Positions 51,145 to 64,000 of a DNA stretch of 64,000 bases are shown here, in pieces (positions within the stretch are counted from its first letter, which is position 1; every line of letters begins with the position of its first letter). Position numbers and translations under genes: made by a program. Under the pieces are notes generated by a model. That model was not told the DNA's origin and searched no databases. It worked only from the letters and a program-made list of their open reading frames with translations. The DNA is taken from NCBI GenBank assembly GCA_964655445.1, contig CAZZMZ010000001.1, positions 8,390 through 72,389 on the forward strand. Reading direction: 5' to 3'. The stretch comes from an uncultured Mariniplasma sp. Its GTDB lineage: Bacteria; Bacillota_I; Bacilli_A; Acholeplasmatales; Acholeplasmataceae.

Positions 51145-51173
51145 TTGACAAAATCAATTTGAATGAATATAAT
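51145..51173 (+). promoter_or_regulatory. Consensus sigma-A promoter of the DUF2089 operon
   Basis: TTGACA-N17-TATAAT, perfect match. Confidence 0.85.
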
Positions 51174-51214
51174 TAAGGTATCACTTAAAAAAATTAATCA
51201 AAGGTGGTGTTAAA

Positions 51215-51568
51215 ATGACAAAATATGAAGTGCTTCATCAAATTGAGTCAAAAGAGCTTTCTCCCAAAAAAGCTTACAACATGATTTATAAGAAGCCCAA
51301 GGAGCGTAAACCAAGACGAGCAAGCTTTGTTAAAGCAAGCATACGTATTCCTGATCAAAAAGGTGTGAATCTTTTACTCAGCGTATTACTCATTTTACCG
51401 CTTCCCATTTTCCTGATTCGATGGATCATGAAAAAAAGACAAAGCATTAAAATAAGTGATGAAATTGAAATTGGAGCTAATGAACTGATTAGCTTAATCG
51501 CAGTCAAAGGTGTTAAAGTATTTGTTACAACCAAAACAAACGAGAAAATTAGTCTAAGAACTATATAA
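51215..51568 (+). CDS. Small protein with N-terminal SHOCT-like motif and central hydrophobic segment
   Basis: EVLHQIESKELSPKKAY; LLLSVLLILPLPIFLI; AAGGTGG SD. Confidence 0.75.
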   Translation: MTKYEVLHQIESKELSPKKAYNMIYKKPKERKPRRASFVKASIRIPDQKGVNLLLSVLLILPLPIFLIRWIMKKRQSIKISDEIEIGANELISLIAVKGVKVFVTTKTNEKISLRTI

Positions 51569-51582
51569 AAGGAGCGTTAAAT

Positions 51583-52020
51583 ATGAATCTAAAAACAAAG
51601 ATATACCCAGTATTATCAACTTGCCCTGTATGTAAACATGATTTAAAAGTTGTTAAATTGCATTGTGATCATTGTGATACAACCGTCGATGGTACATTCA
51701 CATTATCAAAATTTAACTACTTAGAAACAGAAAAGTTATATTTTATTGAAGTATTTATTAAAAACAGAGGTAACATTAAGGCCATCGAAAAAGAACTTAA
51801 TATTAGTTACCCAACTGTTAAAAAAATGTTAGATGAGGTCATCGTAGGTCTTGGCTACTCAGTAGATGACGATGAAGATGTTTTCAAAGATCCGTTTAAA
51901 GATAAGGAAAAAGAAAAACAAGAACAAGAAAAAACCATTAAACAATCGATCTTAGATAAAATTGAGAAGGGCGAAATGAAAGTACAAGATGCCCTAGAGT
52001 TTCTTAAAAAGAAATCATAA
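51583..52020 (+). CDS. DUF2089 family protein (Zn ribbon + HTH + SHOCT-like tail)
   Basis: CPVC...CDHC, FIKNRGNIKAIEKELNISYPTV, ILDKIEKGEMKVQDALEFL. Confidence 0.85.
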   Translation: MNLKTKIYPVLSTCPVCKHDLKVVKLHCDHCDTTVDGTFTLSKFNYLETEKLYFIEVFIKNRGNIKAIEKELNISYPTVKKMLDEVIVGLGYSVDDDEDVFKDPFKDKEKEKQEQEKTIKQSILDKIEKGEMKVQDALEFLKKKS

Positions 52021-52035
52021 AAAGAGGTGAATGAC

Positions 52036-52422
52036 ATGTCAAAAGAACAATTAAGAGATGAAAGAATCAAAATTTTAGATTTGCTTGCTAAAGGTGTCAT
52101 CACAGCTGATGAAGCTGAAAAGCTTCTACAAGCCATGGATAAGAGTGAACCAAGCCCACAACAAGAAGTGGTCTTTAACCAAAAGAAAACACCATTTAGA
52201 ATGTTAAGAATCTATGTTGACTCAAACGATGGAGATAAAGTAAGAATTCAAATTCCAATTGAATTTGCAAAATTACTTAAGACTCAAAAGTTTAATGCAA
52301 ACTTAAGAGATAATGACATCGATATTGATGCATTATTAGAAATGATCAATCAAGGTTTTACAGGTGAACTCGTCAATGTTGTCTCAGGTGATGGTGACAT
52401 TGTTAAAATCGTGGTAGAATAA
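52036..52422 (+). CDS. SHOCT-like domain protein (YvlB N-terminus-like)
   Basis: ERIKILDLLAKGVITADEAEKLL; AGAGGTGA SD before ATG 52036. Confidence 0.8.
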   Translation: MSKEQLRDERIKILDLLAKGVITADEAEKLLQAMDKSEPSPQQEVVFNQKKTPFRMLRIYVDSNDGDKVRIQIPIEFAKLLKTQKFNANLRDNDIDIDALLEMINQGFTGELVNVVSGDGDIVKIVVE

Positions 52423-56139: not shown

Positions 56140-56203
56140 CAAATTTTTGTAATTTTAAACATAATTGTTTACAATATAAATAGAGAAATTGAGGAGGAAG
56201 ACT

Positions 56204-57589
56204 ATGATAGAAAAGAAAGTGTTAGAAACGCTTTTAAATGAAGCGTTAAAAACTGGTGCCGATTTTGCTGAAATCTTTATTGAAGATACAAAATCAAACG
56301 TTATTCGTGTCACATCCGGCGATGTCACATCGATTGATCGAGGCAACACCTATGGTGCAGGTATCAGACTTATTCAAGGCTTAGATGAAGTCTATGGCTA
56401 CACCAACGATATGTCATATGAAAAATTGTTAGAACTCGTTATAAATTTAAGAGCATCCTTTGAAGGAGCACCTAAGAAGAGCGTGCCACTTGGTGAAAGC
56501 AAGCCATTTACTTATGACATTAAAAGACCAATGAAGAGTGTCTCAATCGAAGAAAAATCAAAAAAACTACAAGATTTATCCCTAAAAATGAAAAATCATG
56601 ATGCGCGTATTGTTCAAGCGATTACGCAACTCATTGAAAATGAGCAAAGCATTTTAGTTTGTAATTCAAAAGGTATTTACCAAGACGATGTAAGAACGTA
56701 TACACGCGCTGTATTCATGGCTGTTGCACAAGAAAATGGTTTAATGCAACAAGCATTTGAAGGACCAGGTCGTTATATGGGCTATGAAATATTTGATGTG
56801 ATTGATGCAGATAAGATTGCAACTGATGTCGCAACTTCTGCTATCACACTTTTAACAGCAGAAGACATCGAGCCACAAAACATGCCTGTTGTGCTCCACA
56901 ATGGTTTTGGAGGCGTTATTTTCCATGAGGCATGTGGACACCCACTAGAAGCTACATCTGTTGCTAAAGGTTTATCTCCATTTGTTGGAAAAGTAGGTGA
57001 AAAGATTGGTTCAGACATCGTTACGGCGTATGATGACGGCGATGTAGCAGGTGCATGGGGTCGCCTATCATTTGATGATGAAGGTATGAAGACACAAAAA
57101 AATCTTCTCATTGAAAATGGTGTTTTGAAAGGATACTTAATCGACTATCGAAACGGTATAAAGATGGGTATGGAACCTACAGGTTCAGCTAGAAGACAGT
57201 CTTATAAATTCTCACCAACATCTCGTATGAATTCGACATATATTGCACCAGGTAAAGACAAATTTGAAGATATTATTAAAGACACGAAATATGGTTTATT
57301 TGCGAAAAAGCTTGGTGGTGGTACTGTTGTACCAGCAACGGGTGAATTTAACTTTGCAGTGCAAGAAGGCTACATGATTGAAGATGGTAAGTTAACAAGA
57401 CCTGTCAGAGGTGCGATGCTTATTGGACATGGTAAAGATGTCTTATTTAAGATTGATCGCGTTGCAGATAATCTCGAGTTTGGTCAAGGTATGTGTGGCT
57501 CGTTATCAGGAAGCATTCCTGTTGATGTGGGACAGCCCACCATTCGTGTGTCTTCAATGACTGTTGGTGGTTCAGGAGGTAAGAAATAA
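56204..57589 (+). CDS. tldD: TldD family metalloprotease
   Basis: FHEACGHPLEA (HExxxH), FDDEG, RMNSTYI, GMCGS; GAGGAGG SD. Confidence 0.93.
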   Translation: MIEKKVLETLLNEALKTGADFAEIFIEDTKSNVIRVTSGDVTSIDRGNTYGAGIRLIQGLDEVYGYTNDMSYEKLLELVINLRASFEGAPKKSVPLGESKPFTYDIKRPMKSVSIEEKSKKLQDLSLKMKNHDARIVQAITQLIENEQSILVCNSKGIYQDDVRTYTRAVFMAVAQENGLMQQAFEGPGRYMGYEIFDVIDADKIATDVATSAITLLTAEDIEPQNMPVVLHNGFGGVIFHEACGHPLEATSVAKGLSPFVGKVGEKIGSDIVTAYDDGDVAGAWGRLSFDDEGMKTQKNLLIENGVLKGYLIDYRNGIKMGMEPTGSARRQSYKFSPTSRMNSTYIAPGKDKFEDIIKDTKYGLFAKKLGGGTVVPATGEFNFAVQEGYMIEDGKLTRPVRGAMLIGHGKDVLFKIDRVADNLEFGQGMCGSLSGSIPVDVGQPTIRVSSMTVGGSGGKK

Positions 57590-58896
57590 TGTATCAATCA
57601 TGGATTTTGTTAGGCAAAGAAAAAGGTATTACTGATTTAGAAGTATTTGCTGTTAGAAATAAAAGCTTAAAATTATCTGTTTATGAAGGCAAAGTTGATC
57701 AACATGTTCAAAGTGATGTTGAAGTTGTCACGATTAGAGGTATTGTAGAAAACAAGCTTTCTACGATTCGTTTTGAAAATCTAAGTCAAACCAATGTATC
57801 GGAGATGCTTGATCAATTAATTCTTAATGCGAAAGCTTTAACAGTTGTTGAGCCAGCGATTATATATGAAGGATCTAAGTCATATCCAGAAGTAAAAGAT
57901 GAGCTTTTTGATTTTGGTAGTGTACCTGTCATTGATAAAATTAACCTACTTAAAAATCTTGAATCAAAGATTTTAGAAAATAAAAAAGTTAAGCAAGTCC
58001 AATCAACGCAATATCAAGAAATTGATACTGAAACAACACTTGTTAATTCAAAGGGACTTAATCTCTCAAGACATAACACCTATGCTTATGCATATGCTAT
58101 TGGTGTGTTTGCAGAAAATGAAGATATCCAAACTGCATATGATGTTAAGCTTGCTAAAACGTTTGATGAGTTTGATGCAGACAAGATGGCTCAAAAAACC
58201 ATCGATATAGGTGTGAAAAAACTAGGCGGGAAATCCATACCATCGGGTCACTATAAAACGGTATTTTCTAATGAAATGTTTGCTGACTTGTTATCCGTTT
58301 TTACAAGTATTTTCTCAGGTGAATCAGCATATAGAAATATGACATCCTTAAAGGATAAGGTCGGTAAAGAAATTGCTGATAAACGTTTTAATTTAATCGA
58401 TGATCCATTATTTAAAGACGCACTCTTTAAAATGCCATTTGATGATGAAGGTGTAGCTTGTAGCAAACGCTATGTGATTGAAAATGGCGTATTTAAGGGA
58501 TTTAATCATAATTTGAAGACTGCAGCTATCTTCAAAGAATCACCAACAGGTAATGGATTCCACGGTAGTATAGCACCTACAAATCTTTATTTAGAACCAG
58601 GTCAAAAGTCATTTGATGAAATGATTTCAACAATTAAAGAAGGCGTCTATATTACAGATTTAGTAGGACTTCATGCAGGTGTGAAACAAGTTTCTGGCGA
58701 TTTTAGTTTACAAGCATCAGGCTTTAAAATTAAAGATGGTAAACTAGATCACGCAGTTAAAATGATTGTCATCTCTGGTAATTTCTTTAAAGCAATCAAT
58801 GATATCGATGAAATAGGCAGTGACTTAAAGTTCACCATTCAAGGTGTTGGTAGTCCTTCCGTATCGTTTAAATCACTTGTTGTTGGTGGCGAATAA
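57589..58896 (+). CDS. pmbA: TldE/PmbA family protein
   Basis: PFDDEGV, SGDFSLQASG, ISGNF; no HExxxH; TAATG coupling with tldD. Confidence 0.9.
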   Translation: MYQSWILLGKEKGITDLEVFAVRNKSLKLSVYEGKVDQHVQSDVEVVTIRGIVENKLSTIRFENLSQTNVSEMLDQLILNAKALTVVEPAIIYEGSKSYPEVKDELFDFGSVPVIDKINLLKNLESKILENKKVKQVQSTQYQEIDTETTLVNSKGLNLSRHNTYAYAYAIGVFAENEDIQTAYDVKLAKTFDEFDADKMAQKTIDIGVKKLGGKSIPSGHYKTVFSNEMFADLLSVFTSIFSGESAYRNMTSLKDKVGKEIADKRFNLIDDPLFKDALFKMPFDDEGVACSKRYVIENGVFKGFNHNLKTAAIFKESPTGNGFHGSIAPTNLYLEPGQKSFDEMISTIKEGVYITDLVGLHAGVKQVSGDFSLQASGFKIKDGKLDHAVKMIVISGNFFKAINDIDEIGSDLKFTIQGVGSPSVSFKSLVVGGE

Positions 58897-58916: not shown

Positions 58917-58947
58917 AATGTGTAGCTTGTTAGCTGCACATTTTTTT
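58917..58947 (+). terminator. Intrinsic terminator
   Basis: AATGTGTAGCT-tgtt-AGCTGCACATT plus T run. Confidence 0.75.
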
Positions 58948-58948
58948 G

Positions 58949-58978
58949 TTGACAGGTCTTTTTATGAAATGGTATACT
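58949..58978 (+). promoter_or_regulatory. Sigma-A promoter of mntR-mgtE-mgtE
   Basis: TTGACA-N18-TATACT with extended TG. Confidence 0.8.
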
Positions 58979-58986
58979 GAAGTTAG

Positions 58987-59006
58987 TTTTAAGGTGCGCC
59001 TTAAAA
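58987..59006. promoter_or_regulatory. DtxR/MntR-box-like operator
   Basis: Inverted repeat TTTTAAGG-TGCG-CCTTAAAA just downstream of -10, resembling TTAGG-N4-CCTAA boxes. Confidence 0.7.
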
Positions 59007-59062
59007 TTGAAAGTGATATTACCTTATCATTTTTATATTTAAAACAAAAATCGAGGTGTCAT

Positions 59063-59719
59063 ATGAACCGAGCTGAAGAAGATTATATAAAAACGATTTA
59101 TGAACTAACCATTGAAAAAAAACAACCCCTCATTAAAGCTAATGAATTATCTGAAAGGTTTGGCTATAGTGATCAATCAGTGAATGAAATGATTAAAAAG
59201 CTTGTAAAAAAGCATTTAGTATCCTTTGTGCCTTATAAAGGTGTATCTTTAACATCTAAAGGCAAGGATGTAGCAATTCGAATGGTGAGGGCACATCGCA
59301 TTTGGGAAGTTTTTTTAACTGAAAAGTTAGGTTTTTCATGGGATGAAGTTCATGAGGATGCAGAAATGTTAGAGCATGCTACCTCTAAACATGTACTAGA
59401 AAAACTGTATCATTTTCTAGGTGAACCTAAGTATTGTCAGCATGGTAATCCTATACCAGATTTTAAAAACCATATGGCAGAGGTTGCTGTCCAATCGCTA
59501 GATCAACTCAAAGTTGGAGAAACATTTGAAGTTTTACGGGTACTTGATTTTAAAGAGCTCTTGCTTTATTTAAACGAGCAAAATATCAAGTTACATGATT
59601 ATCTGAACATTATTGAAAAAGATGAATTTAACGGTATCATGACTATTCTTTGCAACAATCAAAGAAAAACAATGAGTATTAAAACAGCCAAAATGATTTT
59701 TGGACGTATCAAAAAATAG
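59063..59719 (+). CDS. mntR: DtxR/MntR family metal-dependent repressor with C-terminal FeoA-like domain
   Basis: EEDYIKTIY, SVNEMIKKL, RAHRIWEVFL, EDAEMLEH, CQHGNPIP; GAGGTG SD before ATG 59063. Confidence 0.9.
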   Translation: MNRAEEDYIKTIYELTIEKKQPLIKANELSERFGYSDQSVNEMIKKLVKKHLVSFVPYKGVSLTSKGKDVAIRMVRAHRIWEVFLTEKLGFSWDEVHEDAEMLEHATSKHVLEKLYHFLGEPKYCQHGNPIPDFKNHMAEVAVQSLDQLKVGETFEVLRVLDFKELLLYLNEQNIKLHDYLNIIEKDEFNGIMTILCNNQRKTMSIKTAKMIFGRIKK

Positions 59720-59741
59720 TTTATAAAAAGGAGTTCTAGCC

Positions 59742-61061
59742 ATGTTAAAGCAATTGATTCAAGAAAATCAAATCAAACAATTAAAAGTTTTTTTAGATGA
59801 AGTGCATGCACATGACTTAGCGGAACTTTTTTTTGAATTATCTATCACAGAAAGACAGAAAGTCTATAATCATATTACTAATGAAAAATTAGCTGATTTA
59901 GTATCATACTTAGATACAGAAGATGCTGCAATGATTCTTCAAGAATTCGATTTAGAAAAACAAAAAGAAATCGTTGAAATGATGGAGCCAGATGATGCAG
60001 CAGATATCATACAAGAGCTTGAAGAAGAAGAGCAAGAAGAATTAATTGAACTTTTAGGTGAAACCTCTGATGTTGTCCAATTGATTAGATATGACGAAGA
60101 TGAGACTGGTTCTGCAATGACCAATCTATTTATTGCAGTTGAGCCAGATATGGATGTAAAAGCTGCAACCAAAAAAGTGATCAAAGAAGCAGCAGATGTC
60201 GAATCGATTAACACTATTTTTGTAACAAAAAGTGATGGTACTTATATAGGCGCTGTGCCATTAAAAAAATTACTAAAAGCTAAATCACCACTTAATGTTG
60301 AATCTATCTTGGAAGAATATCCATATGCATTAGATAAAGATCCTATCGAAAAAACCGTGTCTAGTATTCGTAATTATGCGATATATGAGATGCCAGTATT
60401 AAATGATGTAAACAAATTAATTGGTATGATTACATTAGATGATGCCCTTGATATCTATCAAGAAGAGGCACAAGAAGACTTTGAGAAGCTTGCCGGTCTA
60501 CCTGAAACATTAGAAGATAGTACGGCATTAAAAACGGCTTTACATCGCGTGCCTTGGCTATTAACACTTCTTGTCATCTCAGTGCCAATTGCATTAGTTA
60601 CACATGCATTTGAAGAGGTGCTTGCAACTGTAGCCTTGCTCATTATATTTCAACCACTTATATTAGATACTGCAGGAAATGTTGCTACACAAACTCTCGC
60701 TGTTACATTAAAAATGTTTGCATCTAATGAAAGAGGACTTTTAAAAAACAGTTATAGAGAAATTCTTACAGGTATGTTAAATGGGTTTGCAATTGGATTA
60801 TTAGCATTTGTGATGACGATTGTATTTGCTCAGTTAAATACATCACTCGCACAAAATCCGATACTCATTGCTTTTGTCGTTGGTATTTCTTTATGGTTAA
60901 CACTCATTGTTGCACCTATTGTAGCAATCGTTATACCACTCACTTTAAGAATGCTTAAATTTGACCCAGCTGTTGCATCTGGTCCATTTATTACAACGAT
61001 TATAGATGTAGCAGCACTCATGATATATTTTGGCCTTGCTGGACTTCTATTGGGGGTGTAA
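59742..61061 (+). CDS. mgtE: MgtE family divalent cation transporter, copy 1
   Basis: Acidic N-domain, CBS pair, RVPWL, AGNVATQ, DPAVASGPFITTIIDV. Confidence 0.92.
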   Translation: MLKQLIQENQIKQLKVFLDEVHAHDLAELFFELSITERQKVYNHITNEKLADLVSYLDTEDAAMILQEFDLEKQKEIVEMMEPDDAADIIQELEEEEQEELIELLGETSDVVQLIRYDEDETGSAMTNLFIAVEPDMDVKAATKKVIKEAADVESINTIFVTKSDGTYIGAVPLKKLLKAKSPLNVESILEEYPYALDKDPIEKTVSSIRNYAIYEMPVLNDVNKLIGMITLDDALDIYQEEAQEDFEKLAGLPETLEDSTALKTALHRVPWLLTLLVISVPIALVTHAFEEVLATVALLIIFQPLILDTAGNVATQTLAVTLKMFASNERGLLKNSYREILTGMLNGFAIGLLAFVMTIVFAQLNTSLAQNPILIAFVVGISLWLTLIVAPIVAIVIPLTLRMLKFDPAVASGPFITTIIDVAALMIYFGLAGLLLGV

Positions 61062-61062
61062 T

Positions 61063-62403
61063 ATGAAAAGAATAAACTTTAAACACTCAGATGATGCCAT
61101 CAAAAAAGTATTAAAAACCATATTTGCATATGATTTAGCAATTTTATATCCATCATTAGATGATGATGAGAAAAAACGCATCATTCATTTAATAGGACTT
61201 GATAAGTTAACAGATATGTTTGTAGAGCTTGACGTAGACGATCAATGTGAATTGCTTGATTTTTTAGAGCCAACACGTCAAAAGTCCCTTTTGAAAAATC
61301 TTGAAAGTGATGACCTAAAGGAGTTCATTGAAGATATAGAAGACGAAGAGAAAAGACAGCATTTCATTCAACTATTACCGCCTTTGAAAAAGAAAACGAT
61401 TGAATTACTTTTAACTTATGATGAAGATCTAGCAGCGTCCATAATGACGACTGATTTTGTCACAGTAAATCAATCTTTATCTATTAAAGAAGCTACAAAT
61501 AAAGTAGTTACAACTTCTAAGGATGCTGATTATATTGATACAATCTTTGTTGTAGATGATAAGAATCGAATGATTGGTGCAGTTGACTTAAAGACATTAA
61601 TTATTACAAGACCACAATCTTCATTAGATCAAATTATGATGGAAGATTTCCATTTTGTATATGAAGATGATTCCATTGAAAAAGCTATTGAAACAGTCCA
61701 AGATTATGATAGAAACGCTATACCTGTTTTAAATCATGAAGATCAAGTCATTGGTATTGTTACGGCAGATGACATTTTTGATGAAATTATTGAGAATGCT
61801 GAAGATGATTATCAAAGAATGGCTTTATTATCTGACCATGAATCAACATCATCTGCATTTAGACGTACAAAGCAAAGACTTCCTTGGTTGATGATTGCTG
61901 TTTTTCTTAACCTTGTGATTGCATCTTTCTTATCTATTTTTGAAGCGACGATTGAACAAATTACAGTACTTGTATTATTTCAACCGCTTATTTTAGGTAT
62001 GGCTGGTAACATTGGCACACAATCTTTGGCTGTCACAATCTTAGGGCTTCATTTAAAAGAGTTCGATGAAAAAACATTACCTAAAACACATGTCATGAAA
62101 GAACTTGTGATAGGGGCTATTAATAGCTTGTTACTTGCTCTTGCATCTTTGATTTTTGTGAATGTTTTTTTAGGTATTATCAATTATCAAAATACACCAA
62201 ATGCAATGGAAATTGGTATCATCGTAAGTATTGCTATCTTCACATCGATGTTCATATCAGCTTTGATGGGCGTGTTTGTGCCACTTACATTAAATAAATT
62301 CAACCACGATCCATCTGCAGCATCAGGTCCTATTATGACAACCATTAATGATATTGTTGCGTTAGTGATTTATTTTGGGATTGCTACACTTGTCTTTTTA
62401 TAA
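61063..62403 (+). CDS. mgtE: MgtE family divalent cation transporter, copy 2
   Basis: AASIMTT, CBS pair, RLPWL, MAGNIGTQ, DPSAASGPIMTTINDI; start revised to ATG 61063. Confidence 0.92.
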   Translation: MKRINFKHSDDAIKKVLKTIFAYDLAILYPSLDDDEKKRIIHLIGLDKLTDMFVELDVDDQCELLDFLEPTRQKSLLKNLESDDLKEFIEDIEDEEKRQHFIQLLPPLKKKTIELLLTYDEDLAASIMTTDFVTVNQSLSIKEATNKVVTTSKDADYIDTIFVVDDKNRMIGAVDLKTLIITRPQSSLDQIMMEDFHFVYEDDSIEKAIETVQDYDRNAIPVLNHEDQVIGIVTADDIFDEIIENAEDDYQRMALLSDHESTSSAFRRTKQRLPWLMIAVFLNLVIASFLSIFEATIEQITVLVLFQPLILGMAGNIGTQSLAVTILGLHLKEFDEKTLPKTHVMKELVIGAINSLLLALASLIFVNVFLGIINYQNTPNAMEIGIIVSIAIFTSMFISALMGVFVPLTLNKFNHDPSAASGPIMTTINDIVALVIYFGIATLVFL

Positions 62404-62523: not shown

Positions 62524-64000
62524 ATGGAAAAGTATTTAAATGTCTACAAAGAGACAAGAAAAAAAATTAAAGCATATTCATATTTTGGATGGCTTATGAG
62601 CTGGGACCAGGAAACTGAAGCACCAGAATTATCAGTTGGATATCGCACAAAGCAATATCAAGTATTCGCTGAAGAATTATATAAGATTCAATCAGATCCT
62701 GCATATGTTGAAGCGATTGAATACTTATATGAACACATCAATGAGATTGAAGATGCTGATTTTAAAGTAGAAATTAAAAATGGTTATAAGGATTTAAGAT
62801 GGGTTAAAAAAGTACCTAAAGAGGAATTACTCGAATATCGTGTGCTCACAAGTCAAGCATCACATATTTGGGCAAAAGCAAAGCAAGCAGATGATTTTGA
62901 CATGTTTGCACCTACGCTAGAAAAAATAGTTGCTTTTAACCGTAAACTTGTTAAATATTTAGAAACAGATACCTTAAAAGGTTATGATATTCTTTTGGAT
63001 ATGTATGAAGAAGGCTTTGGCACAAAAGAATATGACTTATTTTTTAACACACTAAGAGAAGAACTCGTACCCTTTGCTTTAGAAGTAACTAAAGGACCAA
63101 AACGCAAATTTAATCGTAAGCTTAAAAAAGCGATTTATCCCGCTTCAGTTCAAAGAGAGTTTTCCCAATATTTAATCGATGTCTTTAATTATGATCGTAA
63201 ACGTGGACTTCTTAAAGAGTCAGCGCATCCTTTCACTTCAGGTGTGAGTTCTAAAGATACTCGTATAACAACACATTATCATGAAGATAATTTACCTTCA
63301 TCGATTTTTTCAACAATTCATGAAATGGGACACGCCATTTATGAATTACAAAATGATGAAAAATATGATGATACATTTTTACATGGTGGTACATCACTTG
63401 GTATTCATGAATCCCAATCACGCATGTATGAGAATATGATCGGTCGCTCATTAGCATTTTGGAAATTGCACTATCCGAAACTGCAATCACTTTTTCCAAA
63501 ACAATTGAAAGATATTAGCGTTGATGAGTTTCATGCCTATATAAATCAAGCAGAAAGATCACTTATTCGTATTGAAGCAGATGAACTCACCTATTCACTT
63601 CATATTATGGTTCGTTATGAAATTGAAAAGGAATTAATTAATGGTCGTTTAAAGGTTAAAGATTTACCAAAGAAATGGAAGACATTAATGAGTAAATATG
63701 TCGGAAAACGTCCAACAACAAATAAAGAAGGTGTCTTACAAGACATCCACTGGTCTGGTGGCGCATTTGGATATTTCCCAACCTATGCACTGGGTTCTGC
63801 ATATGCTGCACAAATGTATGACTTTATGAACCAATCATTTAATGTTGAAGAAGCTATTGCAAACAATGACATCAAAAAAATTAATGAATGGAATAGAATC
63901 CATATTCACCAATATGCATCATCTAAAACACCAAAGGAAATCATTAAACTTTCAACTGGTAAGGCATTTGATCCATATTATTATGTTAATTATTTAAAAA
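62524..64000 (+). CDS. M32 family carboxypeptidase (carboxypeptidase Taq-like), 3' truncated by window
   Basis: Open frame from ATG 62524 to window end (missing from ORF track): SWDQET, HPF, TRITT, HEMGH (HExxH), HESQSR, IRIEADELTY, GVLQDIHWS, GYFPTYALG. Confidence 0.93.
   Translation, partial: MEKYLNVYKETRKKIKAYSYFGWLMSWDQETEAPELSVGYRTKQYQVFAEELYKIQSDPAYVEAIEYLYEHINEIEDADFKVEIKNGYKDLRWVKKVPKEELLEYRVLTSQASHIWAKAKQADDFDMFAPTLEKIVAFNRKLVKYLETDTLKGYDILLDMYEEGFGTKEYDLFFNTLREELVPFALEVTKGPKRKFNRKLKKAIYPASVQREFSQYLIDVFNYDRKRGLLKESAHPFTSGVSSKDTRITTHYHEDNLPSSIFSTIHEMGHAIYELQNDEKYDDTFLHGGTSLGIHESQSRMYENMIGRSLAFWKLHYPKLQSLFPKQLKDISVDEFHAYINQAERSLIRIEADELTYSLHIMVRYEIEKELINGRLKVKDLPKKWKTLMSKYVGKRPTTNKEGVLQDIHWSGGAFGYFPTYALGSAYAAQMYDFMNQSFNVEEAIANNDIKKINEWNRIHIHQYASSKTPKEIIKLSTGKAFDPYYYVNYLK

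Follow-up and report, generated by a model that had tools for sequence, protein, structure and literature searches.

Why should a metal-sensing repressor of the DtxR family be encoded directly ahead of two genes for MgtE, a channel that the structural and mechanistic papers cited here, in their available parts, treat as a symmetric, Mg-controlled homodimer? The question is raised by the unit mntR-mgtE-A-mgtE-B in DNA of an uncultured Mariniplasma sp. (contig CAZZMZ010000001.1, positions 8,390 to 72,389; "the window" denotes this whole stretch of 64,000 nucleotides). In the initial annotation, the two paralogs were proposed to be a repurposed, perhaps heterodimeric, importer of Mn(II) or Fe(II) under MntR repression. 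The reading preferred here (probability about 0.45) is that the two proteins make up a Mg channel of heterodimeric build, through which some Mn leaks and whose genes are repressed when Mn is in excess; ZupT, encoded elsewhere in the genome, would be the main importer.

The palindrome downstream of the promoter, which had been taken for the operator of the adjacent DtxR-family repressor, is very likely just that (perfect 8-bp arms, spanning about +3 to +22), and repressor and box are predicted with high confidence to govern a Mn(II)/Fe(II) uptake regulon. The regulon is well supported because the box (consensus TTAAGG-N4-CCTTAA) recurs ahead of uptake genes: before zip-mntR-mgtE-mgtE, at the same position, in 28/28 genus loci fetched (30 were requested of 35 matches; 29 loci when the window is counted), before troABCD-mntR in six of six loci (11.9-26.7 bits) and before the zupT gene of this genome. 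One relative (L150) carries it before troABCD-mntR-mgtE-mgtE. With an operator matrix trained on the sites of 19 relatives, the zupT promoter ranked first of seven matches in the genome (26.7 bits) and the window operator second (16.7 bits); after shuffling, three versions of the genome still had 1-3 sites scoring 15 bits or more. The window box is near chance by score alone but not by position, because the box starts exactly 8 nt past the -10 element in 50 of the 55 loci with an operator (certain genomes enter twice) and likewise in the window. No box of at least 13 bits was found near feoAB in the genome. A predicted Mn/Fe regulon, with its operator and three interchangeable importers, is now defined for the Acholeplasmataceae.

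A third candidate operator, at window position 51171, was rejected, since it belongs to a different conserved motif. This near-palindrome, AATTAA-N8-TTAAAA (51171-51190), overlaps the -10 element of an operon (51215-52422) encoding a DUF2089 zinc-ribbon/helix-turn-helix protein and a SHOCT-like protein; most genus relatives (L199-L215) have it in the corresponding position, and it is possibly the DUF2089 protein's own operator.

Three domains of the repressor score above cut-off, namely the winged helix (PF01325), the dimerisation domain (PF02742) and a FeoA domain at the C terminus (PF04023); among solved structures it is closest to SloR, MtsR, ScaR and DR2539. Ligand lists were taken from the available parts of PMC6698748 and of the DR2539 preprint: the primary site (D7, E101, E104, H105) and the ancillary ligands (H78, E82, H97, C125, H127, D162) are present, and these ten positions are conserved in 59-61 of 61 relatives. 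By the same sources, as far as available, the SloR/ScaR/MtsR subfamily responds mainly to Mn. The protein had been matched to B. subtilis MntR, with its Asp and Glu ligands read as a Mn-selectivity signature. Asp7 and Glu101 are indeed in place, but the repressor is not of the two-domain type (it carries FeoA and fails the B. subtilis-type model PRK03902, with 58 bits against a cut-off of 138), and in this subfamily the signature is, by the same partial sources, compatible with Fe(II) sensing as well.

The features of the locus are collected in Table 1.

Table 1. Features of the mntR-mgtE-A-mgtE-B locus, in window coordinates.
Feature	Position	Strand	Description
Intrinsic terminator of the upstream tldD-pmbA unit, insulating the promoter	58917..58948	+	11-bp stem and T tract
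Sigma-70-type promoter	58949..58978	+	TTGACA-18-TATACT with TG extension; 11/12, best of 20 sites in the region
Likely repressor operator	58987..59006	.	TTTTAAGG-TGCG-CCTTAAAA; 8 nt past -10
mntR	59063..59719	+	218 aa; three-domain SloR/ScaR/MtsR-type DtxR repressor
mntR-mgtE-A junction	59720..59741	+	22 bp; ribosome-binding site only
mgtE-A	59742..61061	+	439 aa; N domain, CBS pair, plug, transmembrane (TM) domain
mgtE-B	61063..62403	+	446 aa; about 32% identical to A

The promoter, the palindrome and the gene order with gaps of 22 bp and 1 bp were borne out as first described, as were the protein motifs (EEDY and DAEMLEH in the repressor, DTAGNVATQ/GMAGNIGTQ and TTIID/TTIND in the MgtE pair). 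The same promoter architecture is found in relatives; in the window a terminator at 58917-58942 parts the promoter from pmbA upstream. The leader, estimated earlier at about 80 nt without an M-box, measures about 78 nt; an Rfam search returned neither an M-box nor any other family in the window, and no M-box elsewhere in the genome. This mntR and mgtE-A/B are the sole DtxR-family and MgtE genes of the 98%-complete genome. The named records nearest to the locus belong to the Acholeplasmataceae. The unit is flanked by tldD-pmbA (56189-58896) and a gene for an M32 carboxypeptidase (62524-64000), neighbours that many relatives share.

The pair is predicted to be transcribed in several ways across relatives. 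In one genome (G002) the orthologous pair lies directly behind an M-box (152 bits) and a terminator; 8 of the 150 genomes searched have an M-box. Among 49 junctions between mntR and mgtE-A, a terminator is present in 10 and an extended -10 element, some 33 nt ahead of the start, likewise in 10; 13 junctions have at least one of the two. The same kind of extended -10 precedes 13 of 30 unlinked pairs. In the sister locus of the window (L043; 80% and 76% identity) the junction holds both signals. A candidate internal promoter in the 3' end of the window mntR (TTGAAA-16-TATCAT, 59613-59640) was rejected, being matched by synonymously recoded controls (p 0.47); the same test gave p<0.1 in 3 of 36 short-gap loci. 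Because terminator and own promoter are present in the sister but missing from the window, where no internal promoter exceeds chance either, the window pair is likely to be under read-through control from the repressed promoter, its own signals having been lost recently.

Regulation was also compared with the pore, using the numbering of T. thermophilus (Tt) MgtE. Asp at Tt position 325 is missing in 25 of 29 read-through pairs and present in 38 of 42 others (L072, L074, L141 and L149, in which the box is weak or missing or the upstream region is cut off, are excluded from this count), and this is the best-tracking of 43 columns screened. On six independent pairs the association goes the same way in 3.2 and the opposite way in 0, with a median p of 0.25. 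The window A protein retains this TM2 Asp (D309), as is typical of independently transcribed pairs.

The state of the spacer changes nine times on the tree, and such frequent flipping would suit an explanation without any selected function: a zip-mntR cassette would have landed before a housekeeping Mg pair, the spacer would have been deleted repeatedly, and Mn control would be unselected or too leaky. In the sister locus the pair has its own transcription signals, in 30 loci it is unlinked, two relatives (L072 and L074) have mntR-mgtE-mgtE with a weak box or none, and any cost would be buffered by CorA. This account is judged rather unlikely, given that ZIP was lost in the window yet a perfect operator was kept (which autoregulation alone may explain), that the internal promoter in the mntR 3' end does not rise above recoded controls, and that pore position 325 follows the spacer state. 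Should the pair be no more than a Mg channel with a cassette inserted ahead of it, the Mn story becomes minor and the heterodimer question stays.

For that question, 60 fetched regions and 41 named loci were compared, identical sequences being merged. Within the order, 119 of 151 genomes have an MgtE match, and in families f1 and f4 there are almost always two. The mgtE-A (79) and mgtE-B (77) sequences form separate clades, and 75 loci carry both, with A ahead of B; six rows are left unpaired through contig-end cuts, through merging of duplicates or, in L139 and L140, through a short or split B. The tree distances of A and B correlate (r=0.95), and the A-B gaps mostly run from -8 to +2 nt, the ends overlapping or abutting.

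Both window proteins pass the full-length MgtE model TIGR00400 (260 and 268 bits, cut-off 232.75), carry the Pfam N, CBS and TM domains, and keep the TM2 PX6GN and TM5 PX6D motifs, N329 and the plug. The filter Asp432 is present in both partners of all 75 pairs (window D422 in A, D430 in B). The full set of cytosolic Mg sites, assigned from the available parts of PMC5882242 and PMC10200709, is incomplete in each. A keeps D84/D88 (Tt D91/D95) and the plug residues E242/E245/D246 and lacks Tt D226 (A213); B keeps D216 (Tt D226) and has Glu at Tt D95 and Asn at Tt E255. In the pore, A has D309, A315 and I421 at Tt G325, G331 and S431, where B has Gly, Gly and N429.

This division of sites recurs in both clades: D91, D95, E255, E258 and D259 are almost invariant in A, in which D226 is found in just 4 of 75 pairs, while B has D226 in 72/75 and varies at D95 and in the plug; D226 in B combined with a non-acidic residue in A is seen in 63/75. 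Two pore differences are stable, at G331 (Ala in A, Gly in B; 67/75) and at S431 (non-polar in A, Ile in the window, and Asn in B; 71/75). The TM2 and TM5 differences pointed out at first are real as motifs, but the TM2 Asp/Gly contrast was rejected as a fixed heterodimer mark, since DG, GD, GG, DD and SD pairs all occur; the stable asymmetries are G331, S431 and D226. In solved MgtE, sites Mg5 (D226/D250) and Mg7 (E59) connect the CBS domain of one subunit with the plug or N domain of the other, according to the parts of PMC5882242 and PMC10200709 available. A and B are complementary in that their reciprocally conserved sites bridge subunits in these structures. In five loci of family f4 with a short B (L087-L091; 319-326 aa), the N domain is wholly missing from B and A is full length. 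From a class-wide search 20 tandem loci were picked, two of them A-B orthologues in other families; in 17 of the remaining 18, all pairs of other Bacilli families, D226 is present in exactly one copy. On these comparisons A and B probably assemble as a heterodimer: the earlier suggestion gains support from the D226 split, the mirrored clades and the other tandem pairs, and is carried forward as a probable arrangement. A complex prediction (two B and one A, without N domains) scored 0.19 against a mark of 0.32 and was not used as evidence.

That A and B instead form two homodimeric channels with differing gating set-points is possible, with the odds leaning against it. Each protein passes the full-length cut-off and retains D432, N329 and the plug, homodimeric relatives survive the loss of D226, and the solved MgtE matches named are single-gene proteins throughout. 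Against two homodimers stand the reciprocal conservation of inter-subunit ligands, the translational coupling of A and B, and the variation between lineages in whether A or B contributes Asp325. Furthermore, neither gene was seen alone in an intact context among the fetched loci, even in 0.7-Mb genomes, and the pair behaves as a unit: one genome (G039) holds two complete A-B pairs (L052, L053), duplicated together, and the pair of the M-box lineage (L045) recurs with both genes together in two further Bacilli families (L178, L179), where no M-box was found in the fetched stretch and transfer as a pair is likely.

Other MgtE arrangements were observed in passing. Tandem mgtE pairs of 31-67% identity are also present in a number of further families, both of the order and of the class (L180-L197, L078, L081-L084). 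One genome (G060) has an unlinked A-B pair and a distant third MgtE with an M-box about 200 bp upstream (L057/L168, L058). One locus (L065) reads zip-mgtE-mgtE without a box, its mntR being located elsewhere, and carries a c-di-AMP riboswitch just 3' of mgtE-B, ahead of the next gene (L065:1251-1374, minus strand).

As to which metal the pair carries, the transporter content of the genome was surveyed. It encodes two CorA homologues, one ZupT, a Zn-like ATP-binding cassette (ABC) system, FeoAB, one cation diffusion facilitator (CDF) exporter and one superoxide dismutase (SOD). AdcA is the best-scoring assignment for its single ABC binding protein, whose gene is close to one of the Fur family. 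The check for mntH and mntABC suggested by the initial annotation was run: no Nramp and no Mn-type ABC system were found in the 98%-complete genome, nor were a yybP-ykoY riboswitch, MntP or an over-cut-off MgtA. The zupT gene (G000:C6:31855-32701; L110:2856-3702), which carries the strongest copy of the box, encodes a different type of ZIP, about 31% identical to the operon ZIP of relatives and not orthologous to it, and 65% identical to the ZIP adjoining mntR in L099. Among the 29 genus loci, the window alone has no ZIP gene in its unit. Of the 19 family genomes whose pair follows an operator-bearing unit, 18 have CorA, versus 1 of 28 others; the other 27 genomes, in which the pair sits outside a strong-operator unit, have no CorA match.

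This survey bears on the proposal that the A-B pair is itself a repurposed Mn(II)/Fe(II) importer, taking up scarce Mn while CorA is left to supply Mg. The distribution of CorA, the want of Nramp and Mn-type ABC systems, and the persistence of mntR-mgtE-mgtE while ZIP, ZupT and TroABCD were swapped or lost would all suit it, as would the Asp325 pattern. Gating mutants of B. japonicum MgtE import Mn, as cited in the available part of PMC7231995. The outer sites Q304, E311 and H383, which block Mn in T. thermophilus MgtE (PMC4241985, in its available part), are degenerate here, but the M-box pair and single-copy relatives show the same degeneration, and loss of these sites was rejected as a sign of Mn specialisation. 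The filter residues are unaltered, ZupT with its stronger box would already serve as an importer, 4 of the 19 linked genomes have an mgtE promoter or terminator of their own, and the position-325 association does not reach beyond a median p of 0.25 on independent pairs. In the window, A keeps D309 and the sister locus has terminator and promoter, which would make any recruitment recent. A dedicated Mn importer is accordingly unlikely: of the original proposal, control by a Mn/Fe regulon is supported, and import of Mn as the function is weakened by the M-box of G002, the signals in 13 of 49 junctions and the pairs in CorA-less genomes. A Mg role is favoured because of the same M-box, the own promoters and terminators, and the CorA-less genomes.

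In the preferred reading, a repressor sensing Mn(II)/Fe(II) would have been joined, with its conserved operator, to an ancient unequal MgtE pair. A and B would form one heterodimeric Mg2+ channel, A giving the acidic ligands of the N domain and plug and B the CBS Asp226; this single asymmetric set of Mg2+ clamp sites would shut a pore whose filter Asp is contributed by both. The channel would carry mainly Mg2+ and leak some Mn2+. Read from the repressed promoter, the mgtE genes would be off under Mn excess, the repression would restrict Mn entry, and the ZupT gene on contig C6 would provide the main regulated Mn importer. Repression of mgtE would be affordable because the genome has two CorA homologues.

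Several observations weigh against this reading. Of 18 single-copy relatives, which must be homodimers, 14 lack D226, as do the two partners of the M-box pair, and its loss accordingly need not mean a heterodimer; the B protein of the window's clade has kept most acidic sites and might by itself make a gated homodimer. Any two linked sets of orthologues would be expected to give mirror trees, and B is short or split in two draft-genome loci (L139, L140). Terminator and own promoter are both lacking in 36 of 49 junctions, having been lost separately in several lineages, and the loss of the TM2 Asp in read-through pairs points towards true specialisation of some family members. A single clade accounts for most of the CorA pattern, and the genomes of L149 and L150 (3/5) have no CorA match despite mntR-mgtE-mgtE; without CorA, repression under Mn excess would seem costly.

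Neither a linkage of MgtE with MntR, nor a heterodimeric or tandem MgtE, nor MgtE as a member of a SloR/ScaR/MtsR-type regulon was described in the literature titles and abstract openings searched; subscription papers, supplements and regulon databases were outside this search, and an earlier regulon prediction may exist there. The most far-reaching version of the argument, which is improbable, is that Acholeplasmatales and other Bacilli have an obligate two-gene heterodimeric MgtE with an asymmetric clamp, and that in one Acholeplasmataceae clade this channel was repeatedly pulled into the Mn regulon and retuned at position 325 into a Mn(II) importer, the window's copy, under repression but with its Asp retained, standing at the start of this shift. 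If true, the obligate heterodimer would be the split counterpart of the fused SLC41 design, and the retuning would leave pairs that grade naturally from Mg-regulated through intermediate to Mn-regulated, on which Mg2+/Mn2+ discrimination could be studied. A natural heterodimer would in itself show gating sites split across unequal subunits and offer a bacterial model for the asymmetric SLC41 pore, and pairs under an M-box, an own promoter or a Mn repressor form a comparison set for Mg2+ and Mn2+, with Tt 325 as candidate residue.

Among known systems, the regulons of SloR, ScaR, MtsR and DR2539 share with the window the domain order, the metal ligands, a palindromic operator at the promoter, the control of TroABCD-like or ZIP importers and a regulator encoded within the unit. 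The box differs in build: the SloR element is 6-6-6 (PMC12096823, available part) and the box here 6-8-6 (AATTAA-GGnnnnCC-TTAAAA); the MtsR ligand H32 is Gly in 55 of 61 relatives of the window repressor. B. subtilis MntR, of about 140 aa, has two domains and no FeoA, whereas the window repressor carries FeoA as a third domain. In B. subtilis, MgtE is cleaved by YqgP-FtsH under Mn excess (PMC7231995, in its available part); the logic of shutting MgtE down at excess Mn would be shared, but control there is proteolytic and here would be transcriptional, through a Mn repressor. The MgtE proteins of T. thermophilus (PDB 2yvx/2zy9/4u9n) and B. subtilis share the N-CBS-plug-TM order, the D432 filter, the PX6GN and PX6D motifs and most cytosolic Mg ligands with the pair; they are single-gene homodimers, in contrast to two genes of about 32% identity that have lost clamp ligands reciprocally, and the window further differs by having no M-box, Gly at N424 and, as in its relatives, degenerate outer Mn-blocking sites. 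A parallel for a pore built from two non-identical MgtE halves is offered by SLC41 and the archaeal double-repeat MgtE (PMC9276622, as far as available), each one fused chain without CBS domains, whereas here two separate genes each encode full cytosolic domains.

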